From: Geotalea daltonii FRC-32
GTDB lineage: Bacteria; Desulfobacterota; Desulfuromonadia; Geobacterales; Geobacteraceae
Length of the DNA: 32,000 nucleotides
Assembly: GCF_000022265.1 (NCBI RefSeq)
Contig: NC_011979.1
Coordinates: 3,510,001-3,542,000 of the forward strand
Direction: 5' to 3'
The notes beneath the pieces are model-generated. The model was not told the DNA's origin and ran no database searches. It saw only the letters and a list, made by a program, of their open reading frames with translations. Positions 5,230 to 11,425 of the stretch are shown here, one piece after another. A program made the position numbers and the translations under genes. Each line of letters begins with the position of its first letter. Position 1 is the first letter of the stretch.

Positions 5230-5544
5230 CTAGACCACTGCTTTAACTGCCTCCTCCAGAACTTTTAGCGCTGCGTTGACCGCCTTTTGAATGGTCACCT
5301 TGCTTTTGACCTTGCACATGGCAACGCCTGCCTCAAAAGCGTCACGCTCCCCCTCCAACTGATCCTGCAGCTCTTCGTCCGTAAGATCTCCGCCGATGTA
5401 TGCCTCGGAAATATTCTTAAGGGCTTCCCTTTCATCGGCCAGCACCTGTTCCATGGCGTCTTTCACCTTTGGCCATTCTTTCCGAAAAACACCCTCGGCC
5501 GCCGCCAGCATGTCTCCAATGACCTTGTCCAGTTCGAATCCCAC
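5230..5544 (-). CDS. small helical protein, paralogue of 13535..13867
   Basis: The track ORF 5230..5562 begins at a TTG. A GTG at 5544 is preceded by GAGGGGAGGG at good spacing, so a 104-aa product is more likely. It aligns without gaps to the 110-aa protein at 13535..13867 (shared MLxAA..V, IxGD, AxxAAL..V.EEV). Confidence 0.55.
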   Translation of the reverse strand: MGFELDKVIGDMLAAAEGVFRKEWPKVKDAMEQVLADEREALKNISEAYIGGDLTDEELQDQLEGERDAFEAGVAMCKVKSKVTIQKAVNAALKVLEEAVKAVV

Positions 5545-5558
5545 GATAATCCCTCCCC

Positions 5559-6038
5559 TCAATCTGCCGGAACCTTCGCCCCTTCGGCACCGGCAGCATA
5601 CTCGAACATCCGGCGGAACCGATCCCGATCCAGTTCGGCCACTGCGTCTTTATAGGCATCCTTTTCCTTGTGGCGTACTTTACAGCCGATCCACTGCTTA
5701 AGGATCTTCTGGGTGATTTGAACGGAATCCTCGTTGAACTTTCGTACTTTGTTCCGCAACACAAGTGCCCGCAAGTCCAGCTCTATTTCCCGGTATTTGG
5801 GAGCAGAGACCGCATACTGACGCTTGTCTTCGGCAGTATCCAGCAGCTCTGCATAGAACTGATCCACCAGCCGGGCGTCGGTGAAGATCTGCTCCTCTGT
5901 TTTGGCATCGTAGGGGGCAACCATCTGCAGCGAGCAACCACCGACGATCAATGACAGGAGAAACAGAAGACCAAGAGAAAAGAAAGCAGCACCTCTTCCC
6001 CTGGAAAGAATTGGCGGGCATGAAAGGTATGGCTTCAT
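5559..6038 (-). CDS. lipoprotein (candidate immunity partner of the CHAP hydrolase)
   Basis: Signal peptide with lipobox (LLSLIVGG|CSLQ). The start ATG overlaps the upstream stop as ATGA at 6035-6038. Confidence 0.7.
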   Translation of the reverse strand: MKPYLSCPPILSRGRGAAFFSLGLLFLLSLIVGGCSLQMVAPYDAKTEEQIFTDARLVDQFYAELLDTAEDKRQYAVSAPKYREIELDLRALVLRNKVRKFNEDSVQITQKILKQWIGCKVRHKEKDAYKDAVAELDRDRFRRMFEYAAGAEGAKVPAD

Positions 6039-6829
6039 TTTCCTTCCCCCGAATAATCGATAAACCCCTTATTGATCTCGGTGATCTTCCTGGTCAGCCG
6101 GTACACTCCTCCCCCTTCACGGGTCTTGCTGGCATCCGTATTTCCCTCGATGGTCGTAAGCAGGCCCCCGGCGACCTTCTCCACCAGGCCGGTGTGTCCC
6201 AAGCCGCCGCCATGATCCATGATGAAGACCATTCCCGGCTTGACCAGTTCAGGGTTTCCCACTGCCTGGGAACGCCCGATACGTGTTGCCCCGTGAGAAG
6301 TCGCCCGCTGCCAGTGGTCGAGGCATCCGGCCGTCTTGACCATGGGGTTATCGCAATCAAGCGCCTTTGCCGCCTCGTCAAAACACCAGTAGACGAAGGC
6401 ACAGCACCATGAAAGCCCAGTGGGAACGCCGGCCCGCTTCAGATAGGCATCCACCTGGGGACCGCGGTTGGAATTCTTCGGCACTTCCCGCACATGCTTC
6501 GCGTCCTCTCCGGCTGCCACCTGCACTACCCGGCCGAGCAAATCGCCGTCGGCCGTATCGCTCGCGGGAACCGTACCGTCACCGAAAAGCGACGCCCAGG
6601 TCAAGGATCCCACCTCACCGTCCTGCTTGAGAGGCCTGCCGGCAGCGTCCACATTGCGGGCCTGGAAGAGCTTGACCATCTGCTTCATCTTCGGCCCGTA
6701 ATTTGGATCGTCCGGGTCCAGCCTCAAAGCCGGATCGCTCCCTAGGACCTTATTCAGCCTGAGCTTCAATGCCTTGACGATAACTGCATCCTGTTCGCCA
6801 ACCTTGATTATCCGTCCCGGATATTTCAT
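6035..6829 (-). CDS. PG_binding_1 + CHAP/NlpC-P60-type peptidoglycan amidase/endopeptidase, no signal peptide
   Basis: N-terminal degenerate PG-binding repeat (VIVKALKLRLNKVLG...YGPKMKQMVKLFQ...DGEVGSLTWASLF). C-terminal catalytic Cys context GLSWCCAFVYWCF and His context GLGHTGLV...TIEGNTD. SD GAAGGAGGAG. Confidence 0.8.
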   Translation of the reverse strand: MKYPGRIIKVGEQDAVIVKALKLRLNKVLGSDPALRLDPDDPNYGPKMKQMVKLFQARNVDAAGRPLKQDGEVGSLTWASLFGDGTVPASDTADGDLLGRVVQVAAGEDAKHVREVPKNSNRGPQVDAYLKRAGVPTGLSWCCAFVYWCFDEAAKALDCDNPMVKTAGCLDHWQRATSHGATRIGRSQAVGNPELVKPGMVFIMDHGGGLGHTGLVEKVAGGLLTTIEGNTDASKTREGGGVYRLTRKITEINKGFIDYSGEGK

Positions 6830-6978
6830 GACTCCTCCTTCATGTGCCCCAATGGGGCAGGTTGCAGTTCAAAGGTCCCTCCCGCGTTCGATCGGCCTTC
6901 AACCCCTGAAACCCTTGCCAGAGCAGTTTTTGCTGAATATTGTCGAAAAAGATAACAGAGTTTTACCAAAATACTACA

Positions 6979-7020
6979 ACGTCATGCGTGCATTGCCTTG
7001 GAGCAACACACGCATGACGT
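6979..7020 (-). terminator. 12-bp perfect inverted repeat, likely terminator or RNA structure between two operons
   Basis: acgtcatgcgtg (6979-6990) and cacgcatgacgt (7009-7020) flank an 18-nt loop. On the minus strand the hairpin is followed by UGUAGUAUUUUGG. Confidence 0.4.
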
Positions 7021-7242
7021 GCAGATTGTTTGAAAAGATTCCCAGAGAGCGGGAATATCGATGGTGAGGGCTTTGGCAAGCCAATTACCGGGGAGGCGGC
7101 TGGACTAAGTTAAAGCAATATAATTTAAAACAACCATATTTCAGGACGCTGCCTCCCTTGGCGAAAATAAGGTTCAGGGTACCCGGCACACGGGCTGACC
7201 GTCGCAGGGTTCTTCATGTCATTTCTAGCTGCCATGCCGGCC

Positions 7243-9759: not shown

Positions 9760-10408
9760 TGGCTCCTCCTGGAGTTGTCTTTGCCGGTACCGCCGTCTCA
9801 CCGTCGACTGACTTTTTCGGTTGCTGTTTCAGGATTTTCCGCAAGCAGTCAGACTGTTCCCTGGTCAGAATGAATCTCTGCGGCCTCCATGGGTTCAGCA
9901 AACAGTCCATGAAAAGGGAAAACTTGGATCTCTTTGCTGTGATTTCCGGGGAACCTGCTGATTCAGCGCCGAAAGACGGAATCTCCATGAAATGTTTCCC
10001 CTCTACCAGGACCTCCCCGCAAGGGTGATCCATGCCCATGAACAGGATCTGCATCCGCACCTGGGCCTTTCTCCACCAGCGACTCGTTTTGCCGTTTGCG
10101 ATCTGCACGTAATACCTCCGCCCTATCCCGGAAAGGAGGCTCTGGGTCAAGCGGCATTGAAATTCCAGCGAAAGCATGGATATCTGTCTGCAGCAGGGGG
10201 AACGGAAGCTTGCGGCAGGCAAGGAAAGCATTTCCCGCTCGCCTTCGTCCGCGGGAGTTCGTGGGATGGCAAAGGTCAAGACAGCATTGTCTTGCGGGGT
10301 GTCCCTCCGGCGAAGGACCGCCTCATTCCTTTTCCTCAACCCGTCCTGTGCGGAAACGAGGGTCTCCTGCAATGCCCGGAGCAGATTATCGAAATGATGA
10401 TTGTCCAT
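9731..10408 (-). CDS. divergent DUF2589-like protein with C-terminal extension (paralogue 3)
   Basis: The start at 10408 (MDNHHFDNLLRALQETLVSAQDGL) is preceded by GGCAGGAGG. It has the same three-block pattern as the other paralogues (N-terminal helix, LSLPAASFRSPCCRQISMLSLEFQCRL, VRMQILFMGMDHPCGEVL). The similarity is weak. Confidence 0.45.
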   Translation of the reverse strand: MDNHHFDNLLRALQETLVSAQDGLRKRNEAVLRRRDTPQDNAVLTFAIPRTPADEGEREMLSLPAASFRSPCCRQISMLSLEFQCRLTQSLLSGIGRRYYVQIANGKTSRWWRKAQVRMQILFMGMDHPCGEVLVEGKHFMEIPSFGAESAGSPEITAKRSKFSLFMDCLLNPWRPQRFILTREQSDCLRKILKQQPKKSVDGETAVPAKTTPGGANEEADTYGE

Positions 10409-10425
10409 ACGGCCTCCTGCCTGGA

Positions 10426-10683
10426 TCAATCATCTAGCCAGATGGGCTTGCGCGGAAAACCCACATGGTAGACGATCCACTGGAGCACCACCTGGTGCTC
10501 ACCCATCTGCAGCACGGCGAAACTCTTCTCGGCGCCGATGATGCACCCTTTGGGAGTGCCGGTCAGACACTTGTTGAGCAGCGCCGTCGCCTCGTCGAGC
10601 TCTTCCGGGGTGCGCATCCGACCTGGGTTGTCGGTTCCCACCGTTATCCGTTTCACGTATTTGACTTCGGTAAGATCGAACAT
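10426..10683 (-). CDS. small hypothetical protein (85 aa)
   Basis: Clean ORF with SD ACGAGGAGAT. It sits between two DUF2589-like genes, and no family was recognised. Confidence 0.55.
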   Translation of the reverse strand: MFDLTEVKYVKRITVGTDNPGRMRTPEELDEATALLNKCLTGTPKGCIIGAEKSFAVLQMGEHQVVLQWIVYHVGFPRKPIWLDD

Positions 10684-10699
10684 ATCTCCTCGTTATCCT

Positions 10700-10735
10700 G
10701 CGGCACCGGGTGCGCCTTTCGACGCCCCGGGCCGC
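10700..10735 (-). other. GC-rich stem-loop directly after the lead DUF2589 gene
   Basis: gcggcaccgggtgcgcc / tttc / gacgccccgggccgc form an imperfect stem (GCGGC.CCGGG.GCG). No U-tract follows on the minus strand, so an mRNA-stabilising or partial-termination element is more likely than a full terminator. Confidence 0.4.
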
Positions 10736-10771
10736 TGTTTTCAAAGAAGATTAGGTGCATTAAGGAATATT

Positions 10772-11425
10772 TCAGGCCGGTGCGGGAAGAGGCTGCACAT
10801 CCTTGGGTGGGCTGATTGCCCGTGGAGCGCAGGCTGTCTGCAGAATATCCAGAACCCTGGAAAGGCCTTCCGGCATCCCCTTGTCCTCTGCATGGACCAG
10901 GACGTGATATTTCGCCGAGTTATCCGAGCTGCGGGTGTTTTCCTTGTGGGTTGCCACCGAACCATGGATTTTTGCCGTTGCCTTGAAGCATCCCCAACCG
11001 ATGGACATTTCCGCTTCCAGGGAAGCGGCGGCATCGGTGGATTCCTTGGATGAAAAGGACGATTTGACCTCCATGTCGAAGGAAACATCGACCGTGGTGA
11101 TGCTCAGGCTGGGAACCTTGACGATGGCCAGCAGCGGTACGCTTATTTCTACCTCCTCCTCCATGGTCGAGCCTGGTGTTCCGGGAATGGCAGTAGGCTT
11201 ATCCACCGGCCGCCTGAATTTGAACAGTGCGTTTCTCGTCCCGCCGCTGTATGGATCTTGAGATCCCGATGCAGGGGGAAGAAAGCCGATTACTTTGATG
11301 AAATCCGCCGTAGCCTGGGCCAATTTTACCTGTGCATTGCAAGCCGCATTGAGCGGCCCCCCGATGAGGTCCTCCATGGGTAATCCCTTGAACTGGTCTG
11401 ACATATTTACGAGTTCGCCTGCCAT
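10772..11425 (-). CDS. DUF2589 family protein (lead gene of the operon)
   Basis: DLIGGPLNAACNAQVKLAQATADFIKVIGF, VPLLAIVKVPSLSITTVDVSFDMEVKSS and KYHVLVHAEDKGMPEGLSRVLDIL match my recollection of the DUF2589 signature. SD AAAGGAGGA. Confidence 0.7.
   Translation of the reverse strand: MAGELVNMSDQFKGLPMEDLIGGPLNAACNAQVKLAQATADFIKVIGFLPPASGSQDPYSGGTRNALFKFRRPVDKPTAIPGTPGSTMEEEVEISVPLLAIVKVPSLSITTVDVSFDMEVKSSFSSKESTDAAASLEAEMSIGWGCFKATAKIHGSVATHKENTRSSDNSAKYHVLVHAEDKGMPEGLSRVLDILQTACAPRAISPPKDVQPLPAPA

Follow-up and report, generated by a model that had tools for sequence, protein, structure and literature searches.

The window, that is, the whole 32,000-nucleotide stretch of Geotalea daltonii DNA that was analyzed, contains a continuous run of ORFs (14 complete and one partial) from position 11425 to the window edge, all on the minus strand. 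The earlier description of the gene order (g1 to g7, followed by g8 to g11; Table 1) is borne out by the ORFs and the Pfam matches, as are the Shine-Dalgarno-like sequences and the short or overlapping junctions among the cassette genes, which fix the starts of g3 (ATG 10408, 225 aa), g4 (ATG 9759) and g10 (GTG 5544). The terminator-like hairpin that separates g7 from g8 fits the proposed division into two operons, i.e., two transcription units. The XRE-type gene immediately upstream, whose synteny is preserved in Geotalea toluenoxydans, is a candidate dedicated regulator that may control the cassette. In related loci, where ORFs were called by a home-made procedure, the regulator differs by lineage, being a LuxR-type response regulator, an AraC-like protein (identified by eye) or a set of LytTR/STAS partner-switching genes. 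The flanks of the cassette consist of housekeeping genes, not defense islands, and PADLOC detected no known defense system in the window. Pfam and PHROG searches of the window revealed no phage structural genes or prophage, no T6SS or Hcp/VgrG/PAAR genes were detected there, and none of the ORFs g1 to g10 is a transmembrane holin-like protein, in agreement with the earlier view that the locus encodes neither a holin nor a phage or secretion-machine gene.

Table 1. Genes and other features of the DUF2589 locus and its immediate surroundings
Feature	Coordinates	Strand	Description	Evidence or remark
HTH_3 gene	12143..12523	-	XRE-type regulator	Pfam HTH_3, E 3e-14; immediately precedes the cassette on the same strand
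g1	10772..11425	-	DUF2589 a-type, 217 aa	Pfam PF11655, E 1.8e-51
g2	10426..10683	-	Soluble 85-aa protein	YHVGFxRKPxW motif; without family
g3	9731..10408	-	Divergent DUF2589-like protein, 225 aa	ORF reaches 10429; ATG with Shine-Dalgarno site
g4	9295..9759	-	Exported protein, 154 aa	Hydrophobic N-terminal signal-like segment
g5	8725..9240	-	DUF2589 b-type, 171 aa	Pfam PF11655, E 1.2e-39
g6	7724..8686	-	Endolysin-like protein	N-terminal PG_binding_1, E 3e-19; conserved C-terminal domain
g7	7243..7665	-	Small GH-E HNH nuclease, 140 aa	PF14410, E 4e-14
Hairpin	6979..7020	-	Terminator-like, 19-bp stem	Between g7 and g8
g8	6035..6829	-	PG_binding_1+CHAP endolysin-like hydrolase	CHAP, E 3.6e-12; PG_binding_1, E 2.8e-5
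g9	5559..6038	-	Putative lipoprotein	Lipobox-like VGGC (sequence, hydropathy); 4-nt overlap with g8
g10	5230..5544	-	104-aa protein	Helical by eye
g11		-	Amidohydro_2 protein	After g10; Pfam

Among the three DUF2589-like paralogs claimed for this locus, g1 and g5 are confirmed by Pfam, whereas g3 has no DUF2589 match in that database. The kinship of g3 is only partly confirmed, for the N-terminal half, by profile-profile comparison: its family (50 members adjoining the triad described below) aligns with the DUF2589b family in hhalign with a probability of 95.6% (E 1e-8) over about 94 N-terminal columns that span the N-terminal helix, two strands and the FD motif. The a-type protein is the best conserved component of the cassette, with 62-90% identity to g1 across proteobacterial classes and 38-62% for the phage and Firmicutes-type members; such conservation is unlike that of known holins or spanins. 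DUF2589a contains a conserved amphipathic beta-hairpin (residues 134-157 of g1), the alternation pattern of which is kept across 39 diverse sequences, and some members have, in addition, a large loop insertion or a C-terminal helical extension of about 200 aa. The AF2 monomer model of g1 is of low confidence (pLDDT 46). For g5, which is 100% identical to a G. daltonii FRC-32 protein, the model (pLDDT 64.7) consists of a long N-terminal helix, a beta sheet, a disordered region (93-133) and a C-terminal helix; Foldseek retrieved no match in the PDB (best E 0.73) and two unnamed viral proteins in BFVD (E 1e-6 and 2e-4). No transmembrane helices were detected in DUF2589a, DUF2589b, g2 or g3, nor signal peptides in DUF2589a, DUF2589b or g2, and we found no functional literature on DUF2589.

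The combination of DUF2589a, DUF2589b and the 85-aa protein was detected in 83 of the 84 cellular loci that were fetched (with g2 itself identified by tblastn), which come from Desulfuromonadales, Desulfovibrio-type bacteria, Xanthomonadales, Burkholderiales and one Treponema MAG. DUF2589 pairs accompanied by g2 homologs are also present in Lachnospiraceae-type loci, where the homologs (90-97 aa) are clear in five of six. The distribution of the cassette is patchy, and its identity across classes is high. The g2 protein has no match in Pfam, NCBIfam or PHROG and is absent from true phage contigs; in cellular loci, it is the invariant partner of the DUF2589 pair. By gene content, DUF2589a (g1), DUF2589b (g5) and g2 make up the core, to which proteobacterial cassettes add g3 and the exported g4. 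The g4 family, in which 42 of the 48 members possess an N-terminal signal-like segment, has no match in the same three databases and is unrelated to DUF2589 according to hhalign. It is a conserved accessory member of the proteobacterial cassettes, kept whichever hydrolase is present.

The Pfam searches also corroborate the PG_binding_1 domains of g6 and g8, the CHAP domain of g8 and the HNH (GH-E) domain of g7. The designation of g6 as GH46-like was not confirmed: the protein has no GH46 match in Pfam, a PDB chitosanase was retrieved at E 0.4-1 only, and for the C-terminal domain the match is to the unannotated family phrog_30036 (E 1e-27). In PDB profile searches, the binding domain alone was matched, for example, by phiKZ gp144. 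The g6 protein contains no signal or SAR sequence, and in 12 delta-type loci an ortholog is found at the corresponding place in the cassette.

The test that the earlier note had chosen in advance, whether DUF2589 genes and wall hydrolases occur together, is strongly positive. In 64 of 81 cellular loci, the gene string of the cassette also encodes a signal-less peptidoglycan hydrolase, which belongs to one of three unrelated families, GH108+PG_binding_3 (n=43), the g6 type (n=12) or GH19 (n=9); many relatives therefore employ a GH108-type muramidase, the type also seen in TtsA. Three of the six Firmicutes loci encode an Amidase_2+Phage_lysozyme (GH24) protein at the cassette. All inspected hydrolases lack signal peptides. 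With the limited probes used, no hydrolase was recognizable in 17 of the 81 cellular loci, in the remaining three Firmicutes loci and in 21 of 54 phage contigs. The hydrolase family is exchanged freely between lineages while the DUF2589a/b and g2 core stays.

The gene that follows the endolysin is, by comparison, variable. In sister loci, this slot is occupied by deaminase-like proteins (HAE...PCxxC, with sub-threshold Pfam scores), a RING-like protein or orphans. The third-position GC of g7 (0.41, against 0.64-0.71 for g1 to g6) suggests recent acquisition, and we consider this gene a lineage-specific occupant, the nuclease slot being limited to one clade. Although its GH-E domain scores above the Pfam threshold, as in the GH-E HNH nucleases of polymorphic toxins, g7 differs from these in being only 140 aa long, in having no recognized trafficking domain and no adjacent immunity gene, and in its location in the variable slot of a lysis-type cassette. 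The second transcription unit, with g8 as the first gene, is a neighboring Geotalea-specific unit: g8, which matches PHROG endolysin families (E 1e-14), is present in the three Geotalea loci only, g9 has no match in Pfam or NCBIfam and might have an immunity or spanin-like role, and g10 was called at 104 aa in G. toluenoxydans as well.

DUF2589a is also encoded on 60 IMG/VR contigs, which represent real phages as indicated by terminase (E 2e-82), portal (E 2e-84) and major head protein genes. A second DUF2589-like gene adjoins it in 50 of the 54 contigs in which the a-type was called, with the g3 profile scoring best in 47 of the 54 and the b profile in three. The phage pair is located near an M15 endolysin (phrog_465, E 8e-39), the endolysin-like phrog_33083 or an SLT-like protein (identified by eye), and all 35 lysin matches among 1315 phage ORFs are at most five genes away from DUF2589a. 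In small phage genomes, the pair lies in the interval that separates the small from the large terminase gene, where it adjoins the endolysin; in one group (group 1), it is convergent to the lysis operon, outside it and transcribed separately. Uncultured phages encode the pair beside an endolysin and small membrane proteins. No holin was detected within three genes of DUF2589a in at least nine phage contigs, and no canonical holin was found in the delta-type core or the Firmicutes loci. The Xanthomonadales cassettes, by contrast, encode holin-like small membrane proteins or a 332-aa protein with three transmembrane segments, which implies that DUF2589 need not be the permeabilizer.

Given that phages, too, carry the DUF2589 pair beside signal-less wall-cutting enzymes, g1 to g6 probably constitute a phage-type lysis/release cassette with an undescribed core part. 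As in phage holin-endolysin(-spanin) cassettes, a signal-less cytoplasmic endolysin is encoded beside small non-enzymatic proteins, the endolysin family is swapped freely while the partner is retained, and the phage relatives of DUF2589 are located in the lysis region, upstream of or between the terminase genes. Holins and spanins are extremely diverse membrane proteins, whereas the DUF2589 partners lack transmembrane helices, are 170-400 aa long, occur as two or three paralogs and show high conservation across phyla; furthermore, no prophage surrounds the locus in the window. Type 10 secretion systems (T10SS) mediate holin- and peptidoglycan hydrolase-dependent release, as exemplified by Serratia ChiWXYZ, Salmonella TtsA and the Yersinia entomophaga lysis cassette (PMC10847048, PMC10109510). 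The present cassette resembles these in being, on this reading, a chromosomal, host-regulated, phage-derived lysis module that could release signal-less cargo but differs in that the window encodes no holin, spanin or identified secreted cargo and in that neither DUF2589 nor g2 is known from a described T10SS. The resemblance to bacterial gasdermins and beta pore-forming toxins is a mechanistic analogy: a soluble DUF2589 protein could insert an amphipathic beta-hairpin from the cytoplasmic side, but DUF2589 shows no sequence or fold match to those proteins and has no associated protease.

On balance, we lean toward the view that the cassette is functionally coupled to endolysin-mediated envelope breaching. 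Weighing against it are the cellular, Firmicutes and phage loci in which no hydrolase was recognizable, the convergent pair of phage group 1, the holin-like proteins of the Xanthomonadales cassettes, the cargo-prone position beside lysis genes, the unusually high conservation of DUF2589a, and the poor to moderate AF2 models with no PDB match. We propose more tentatively, as a possibility that falls somewhat short of probable, that the DUF2589 proteins themselves are the membrane-permeabilizing element; devoid of transmembrane helices, they may support the endolysin by acting on the membrane or in some other essential way. Under this scheme, the dedicated regulator would induce the chromosomal, host-regulated cassette, and the soluble DUF2589 proteins would assemble on a membrane and permeabilize or disrupt it, with the conserved hairpin of DUF2589a as the candidate inserting element. 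The endolysin would then gain access to the wall, and the cell or a subpopulation would leak or lyse, releasing cytoplasmic contents including the product of the variable slot (here, the GH-E HNH nuclease). Such an assembly, followed by endolysin access, would amount to a holin-endolysin or type 10 secretion-like module with a core free of transmembrane helices. The presence of the cassette in monoderm Firmicutes suggests that the common target is the cytoplasmic membrane rather than the outer membrane.

An unlikely alternative is that the DUF2589a/b complex, together with g2, is itself the product, such as a binary pore-forming toxin or some other signal-less cytoplasmic factor, released through lysis of the producer by the neighboring endolysin and a holin encoded nearby or elsewhere. 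Sites beside lysis genes are classic positions of cargo genes: Shiga toxin genes are located beside phage lysis genes, and Tc toxins are released by T10SS. Consistent with such a role, the DUF2589 proteins lack signal peptides and transmembrane helices and occur as a pair, the DUF2589a hairpin is typical of beta pore-formers, the loop insertion or helical extension of the a-type would be expected of an exposed or targeting module, holin-like genes accompany the pair in Xanthomonadales, and phage group 1 transcribes it apart from the lysis operon. However, small phages retain the pair between the terminase genes, beside the endolysin but without a visible holin, the conservation across phyla is far above that usual for toxins, and the association with at least six hydrolase families is as expected of a functional partner. 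This diversity of hydrolases also bears on the proposal that DUF2589 and g2 bind the endolysin or holin and set its timing or activity, in an antiholin-like or sequestering manner and with no membrane contact. Such a regulator or chaperone would be compatible with the close adjacency to endolysins of many families, with the solubility of every component and with the elaborate control suggested by the partner-switching and LytTR regulators of the Firmicutes loci. Still, we regard it as improbable, given that one protein is unlikely to bind hydrolases of at least six unrelated structures, that several lineages have no holin to regulate and that some DUF2589 loci show no recognizable hydrolase.

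Abortive infection, in which early lysis of the infected cell would be combined in this lineage with the action of a nuclease or deaminase, would account for the variable genes after the endolysin and for a mobile cassette with a patchy distribution, high cross-class identity and relatives on phages. We find such a suicide module quite improbable: there is neither a PADLOC match nor a sensor-type domain, housekeeping genes surround the cassette, the nuclease slot is confined to one clade, and small phages carry the pair within the lysis region. The least probable scenario, to which we give very little credence, is that the DUF2589 triad is a new trans-envelope machine delivering antibacterial effectors, namely the wall hydrolases and the HNH nuclease, by injection or export, while g4 and g9 would confer immunity in the periplasm. 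Toxin-type domains are indeed present (GH-E HNH, CHAP, Tle1-like, patatin), and a lipoprotein gene follows the CHAP gene, but the core includes no ATPase, outer-membrane channel or membrane-embedded component, and the effector and immunity candidates are not conserved with the triad outside Geotalea. The corresponding suggestions of the earlier note are accordingly disfavored, both that of a delivery module, the HNH nuclease being a lineage-specific occupant and the CHAP operon restricted to Geotalea, and that of cognate periplasmic immunity, inasmuch as g4 is conserved with the module regardless of the hydrolase instead of being paired with a variable effector, and no ORF resembling an immunity gene lies downstream of g7.

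The lysis/release reading is closer to the other suggestions made previously. A hetero-oligomeric DUF2589 component is favored by the co-occurrence with hydrolases in cellular, Firmicutes and phage loci. T10SS-like release is supported in part, the hydrolase association being seen in 64 of the 81 cellular and three of the six Firmicutes loci and for all 35 phage lysins, which lie within five genes of DUF2589a. The phage connection and the holin-like small transmembrane genes of the Xanthomonadales relatives had both escaped the earlier note.

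Two DUF2589 proteins, one of the a-type (g1) and one of the b-type (g5), together with an 85-aa partner (g2), form a core that is conserved from proteobacteria to Firmicutes and is repeatedly linked to wall hydrolases, of at least six kinds, that lack a signal peptide. In the window, the core belongs to a cassette of six genes that also encodes a divergent DUF2589-like protein (g3), an exported protein (g4) and an endolysin-like protein (g6), the last beginning 38 nt after g5. Every gene called from position 11425 to the left edge is on the minus strand, and almost all are preceded by a Shine-Dalgarno-like sequence, by which the starts of g3, g4 and g10 were set; a terminator-like hairpin with a 19-bp stem lies between g7 and g8. 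Upstream of the cassette, Pfam identifies an XRE-type HTH gene and a patatin gene, and the other 16 kb of the window contain a TonB receptor gene, a radical-SAM/kinase/sigma-54 regulator set and hydrogenase maturation genes. The non-coding stretch between the HTH regulator gene and g1 is unusually long (717 nt), and scanning it revealed neither an Rfam family nor a clear promoter consensus; the cassette itself had no Rfam match, and the sigma-54 promoter pattern was uninformative, showing no enrichment.

Features of the window discussed in the text
Feature	Position	Strand	Description
g14	314-886	-	3-TM protein
g13	895-2424	-	Tle1-like catalytic domain
g12	2597-4000	-	low-GC orphan
g11	3952-5202	-	Amidohydro_2
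g10	5230-5544	-	104 aa
g9	5559-6038	-	lipobox-like VGGC
g8	6035-6829	-	PG_binding_1 + CHAP
g7	7243-7665	-	GH-E HNH nuclease, E 4e-14
g6	7724-8686	-	PG_binding_1 + C-terminal domain without assigned family
g5	8725-9240	-	DUF2589, Pfam E 1.2e-39
g4	9295-9759	-	154 aa, hydrophobic signal-like segment at N-terminus
g3	9731-10408	-	no family match
g2	10426-10683	-	85 aa, no family match
g1	10772-11425	-	DUF2589, Pfam E 1.8e-51
Long non-coding stretch	11426-12142		between HTH regulator gene and g1
Patatin-like phospholipase gene	12565-13419	-	upstream of cassette
c-di-GMP-I riboswitch aptamer	28288-28364	+	40.4 bits
CAP/cysteine-rich secretory family gene	28405-29271	+	directly downstream of aptamer

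Pfam PF11655 (DUF2589) matches g1 with 174.9 bits and g5 with 136.6 bits (gathering cut-off 23), and a whole-library profile search yields 2,092 clusters of the family at E <= 1e-3. The g5 protein is 100% identical to one from Geotalea daltonii FRC-32. The earlier note had counted three DUF2589-like paralogues, which holds in full for g1 and g5 and for only a part of g3. The latter has no match to PF11655. In hhalign, a profile of its family, made by aligning 58 g3-like proteins collected from related loci, reaches a probability of 95.6% (E 1e-8) with the DUF2589b family and 9.9% with the a-type family; the former match is limited to ~94 N-terminal columns that span the N-terminal helix, two strands and a conserved F-D motif. 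Given this similarity to the b-type family, g3 can reasonably be considered a third, partial and divergent paralogue; hhalign indicates no relation to DUF2589 for the g2 and g4 families.

DUF2589 proteins are predicted to start with a long helix, continue with five to six strands and end in another helix, and no hydrophobic helix is found in DUF2589a, DUF2589b, g2 or g3. Residues 134-157 of g1 make up a hairpin in which small-hydrophobic and polar residues alternate strictly across 39 diverse a-type sequences, just after a Ser/Thr/Lys/Glu-rich stretch; such alternation would suit a membrane-inserting beta-hairpin, and one face of an ordinary sheet equally well. At the same site, the b-type proteins have a disordered, variable segment. 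The AF2 model of g1, from 64 close homologues, is unusable (pLDDT 46), and that of g5, from a mixed a/b alignment, is of moderate quality (pLDDT 64.7); Foldseek with the g5 model found no match in the PDB and, in BFVD, two unnamed viral proteins (E 1e-6 and 2e-4). Sequence searches of the PDB with g1, g5 and a broad a-type profile gave no match for DUF2589, and neither did NCBIfam, PHROGs or PADLOC for any of g1-g5. Long a-type proteins (~370-410 aa) possess a C-terminal extension that lacks annotation and looks helical by sequence; among the relatives P0282, P0301, P0305, P0330 and P0371, some have a ~200-aa insertion after the N-terminal helix and others a ~200-aa helical C-terminal extension. 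Against the PDB, the C-terminal extensions give weak, non-significant, composition-driven matches to apolipoprotein-like structures. Another relative, P0471, also belongs to the precomputed family PF28422.

Homologues of g1 with 62-90% identity occur in Desulfuromonadales, Desulfovibrio-type MAGs, a Treponema MAG, Xanthomonadales and Burkholderiales (MAG taxa as deposited). Using tblastn, g1 was recovered from every one of the 84 fetched loci and g5 and g2 from 83 each; g3-like and g4-like genes were seen in ~30 loci at the first tblastn pass and in ~50 after clustering. Open reading frames in these loci were called on the plus strand with simple heuristics of our own, anchored on tblastn. The gene order differs between lineages, being g1 g2 g3 g4 g5 g6 in the delta type, g5 g2 g3-like g1 GH19 in Burkholderiales, and, in Xanthomonadales, a response regulator, GH108+PG_binding_3, g5 g1 g2 g3 g4 and then either two small membrane proteins (~110 aa with 3 TM and ~99 aa with 2 TM) or one 332-aa 3-TM protein. 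The co-occurrence of DUF2589 with wall hydrolases in other genomes, posed as a check in the earlier note, is borne out: of the 81 non-redundant loci, 64 have a same-strand peptidoglycan hydrolase in the gene string, which is GH108 in 43, of the g6 type in 12 and GH19 in 9, these counts being lower bounds because few probe sequences were used, and several of the other 17 loci, without a recognised hydrolase, are truncated contigs. These gene strings show the enzyme exchanged by non-orthologous replacement while the non-enzymatic core stays fixed.

In several delta-type loci (L009, L010, L012, L014 and L017), the g6 orthologue is followed by a conserved pair that is absent from the window: one protein, of ~725 aa, has multiple TM segments and, by eye, perhaps a periplasmic sensor-like segment, the other, of ~350 aa, has 5-6 TM segments, and no Pfam assignment is confirmed for either. 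In one high-GC Xanthomonadales genome (IMG/VR UViG_2831471034, loci L085/L086), a GH108-DUF2589b-DUF2589a cassette adjoins a corticovirus-like prophage (~2500-7300 and 9462-11343) with PM2-type P2 coat protein domains and a GPA replication protein, and the predicted viral boundary runs through the cassette. A general origin of the cassette from corticoviruses was considered and rejected, since this single Xanthomonadales genome has the prophage and the other loci have housekeeping flanks.

The core has a distant branch in Firmicutes; two close relatives are named Lachnospiraceae bacterium. Three of the six Firmicutes contexts (L148, L150 and L152) share the order regulator, Amidase_2+Phage_lysozyme (432-488 aa, no signal), DUF2589, a ~105-147-aa protein, a-type DUF2589, a ~90-97-aa protein and STAS. 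The ~90-97-aa protein is an evident g2 homologue, with the motif YHVGFxRKPxW in common, and no transmembrane segment was found in either of these small proteins. The other three loci encode DUF2589 pairs or trios and no hydrolase, with a g2 homologue in two. The regulator is of the LytTR type in two of the three ordered loci, in one of them with an extra response regulator, and in the third is an HTH_3/response-regulator gene followed by an integrase. The STAS protein, present in all three, and the dCache/HAMP/SpoIIE/HATPase_c_2 protein that follows it in L150 and L152 suggest that the lysis-type genes in Firmicutes are under partner-switching control. Each cellular lineage has dedicated regulators, but different ones.

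The DUF2589 pair also sits in phage lysis regions. Scanning IMG/VR with a broad a-type alignment retrieved 60 contigs, which are genuine phages by their large terminase (E 2e-82), portal (E 2e-84) and major head protein. Of the 54 contigs with a called a-type gene, 50 have a second DUF2589-like gene next to it, which scores best with the g3 profile in 47 and with the b profile in 3. One typical layout runs from the small terminase through two small genes to an M15 endolysin (phrog_465, E 8e-39), then, after one small gene, to the a-type gene and its partner, and, after another small gene, to the large terminase and portal. Another layout comprises an endolysin, the a-type gene, its partner, a protein of 96-102 aa that has a single TM helix at its N-terminus and, by eye, a coiled-coil-like C-terminal part, and a hydrophobic protein of 50 aa; a scan of the TM/coiled-coil genes for embedded lipoprotein (o-spanin-like) ORFs came back empty. 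In a second phage group, the pair is convergent to an operon that combines several small membrane proteins with an endolysin-like gene (phrog_33083). With seven lysin probes, three from these contigs and four cellular, all 35 matches among 1,315 ORFs fell within five genes of DUF2589a, covering 33 of the 54 contigs, the null being solely the within-contig lysin distribution. A small TM protein lies within three genes in 44 of the 54, and in at least nine contigs an endolysin adjoins with no small TM gene near. The g2 family is absent from the true phage contigs. Among the cultured phage genomes of INPHARED, g1 had no match, and a Firmicutes-type a-protein hit one 4-kb contig that carries no annotation.

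The g6 hydrolase has no signal sequence and is built like endolysins such as phiKZ gp144, with PG_binding_1 at the N-terminus and the catalytic domain after it. Its binding domain has endolysin-type PHROG matches, and the catalytic domain is conserved and matches phrog_30036, of function not known. The GH46-like assignment in the earlier note was not upheld: Pfam GH46 gives no match at E <= 0.1, chitosanase structures in the PDB score E 0.43-1, the sole match of the g6 profile there being PG_binding_1, and the E...D-G-x-G-x-S motif, recognized by eye, is a lead to GH46 at most. The same note had recognised no holin, spanin, phage structural, Hcp/VgrG/PAAR or other secretion-machine gene, and the ORF, Pfam and PHROG scans agree. 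Among ORFs of at least 30 aa in g1-g10, no holin candidate (1-4 transmembrane helices) was detected beyond the signal-like segment of g4 and the lipoprotein signal of g9; g1-g7 contain no unimolecular spanin and no inner-membrane/lipoprotein spanin pair, the lipoprotein g9 being part of a separate, Geotalea-only unit. Pfam and PHROG found no phage structural or replication genes in the 32-kb window, and its copy of the cassette has no surrounding prophage. The locus shares with phage lysis cassettes a signal-less endolysin adjoining candidate lysis genes but differs from them in lacking holin, spanin and (pro)phage location; of the requirements of a type 10 secretion system (T10SS), namely a holin, a peptidoglycan hydrolase and a defined signal-less cargo, it has the hydrolase but no holin.

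We infer that the locus would work like a lysis cassette or T10SS, but with a core that is undescribed and widely conserved. The core would be the non-enzymatic partner that enables endolysin action, most simply by permeabilising the cytoplasmic membrane, as suggested by its presence in monoderm hosts and by the lack of a holin in the window, the Firmicutes loci and some phages; the chromosomal copies would then serve regulated lysis or release in a T10SS-like manner. The main rival is that a DUF2589 complex, for example a binary pore-former, is itself the cargo let out by the lysis genes, a model sustained by the holin-like genes of the Xanthomonadales cassettes and by a phage group whose DUF2589 pair is transcribed separately. 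Regulator, abortive-infection and effector-delivery models are less likely. PADLOC models (library of 2023) had no match in g1-g10, and the window encodes no Hcp, VgrG, PAAR, sheath or baseplate protein, the nearest being the Tle1-like g13.

In its most specific form, the permeabilisation reading holds that DUF2589a/b, with the g2 family in cells, are a new class of lysis protein, a soluble, transmembrane-less, hetero-oligomeric permeabiliser that replaces or complements holins, is used by phages of Gram-negative hosts and was domesticated by proteobacteria and Firmicutes for regulated self-lysis or protein release; we advance this tentatively, as a proposal that is less likely than not to hold. 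Full-text literature searches found no functional study of DUF2589/PF11655, only two incidental mentions, and nothing related in work on spanin-less or holin-independent lysis. In many phages no holin or spanin can be recognised, and holin-poor loci raise the question by which route large cargoes and signal-less endolysins exit the cytoplasm. The present analysis gives DUF2589, with its ~2,000 sequence clusters, a first functional context and a small, directly testable gene set (a, b, the 85-aa protein and the endolysin). Should these proteins permeabilise membranes, they would represent a new lysis principle that might also be put to use for lysing cells in a controlled way, and they would mark loci for regulated lysis, or T10SS-like ones, in plant-pathogenic Xanthomonas, in Stenotrophomonas, in relatives of Geobacter and in Lachnospiraceae of the gut.

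The earlier note had united the cassette with the HNH nuclease and the CHAP hydrolase in one module, of which the conserved part is g1-g6. The gene downstream of g6 varies among delta-type loci: in G. toluenoxydans, this slot holds a 143-aa protein and in another MAG a 239-aa protein, both with HAE...PCxxC and with sub-threshold matches to OTT_1508 deaminase and cytidine deaminase, respectively, and in further loci a RING-like protein or orphans. Of the parts of a polymorphic toxin system, the g7 protein has a toxin domain (GH-E) but no recognised N-terminal (trafficking) domain, shares no N-terminal region with the deaminase-like slot protein, and its gene has no immunity-like ORF downstream. 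The g8-g11 unit, with its CHAP hydrolase and lipoprotein, was found by tblastn of the fetched loci in Geotalea loci only and is therefore a neighbour outside the conserved cassette; g10 and the upstream 110-aa protein were compared as candidate paralogues and ruled out as such. Third-position GC is 0.41 in g7 versus 0.64-0.71 in g1-g6, and GC in the region of g12 is 41-46% versus ~55% around it; by this composition, both genes look recently acquired. The g12 ORF of 467 aa, which has no family match, probably encodes ~415 aa from an internal ATG.

The Tle1-like (DUF2235) hydrolase g13 has two C-terminal hydrophobic helices and is followed by g14; given that the window has no T6SS genes, neither g13 nor the patatin-like lipase is obviously a T6SS effector. 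In the distal part of the window, a c-di-GMP-I riboswitch aptamer that scores above the gathering threshold directly precedes the gene for a CAP/cysteine-rich secretory family protein.
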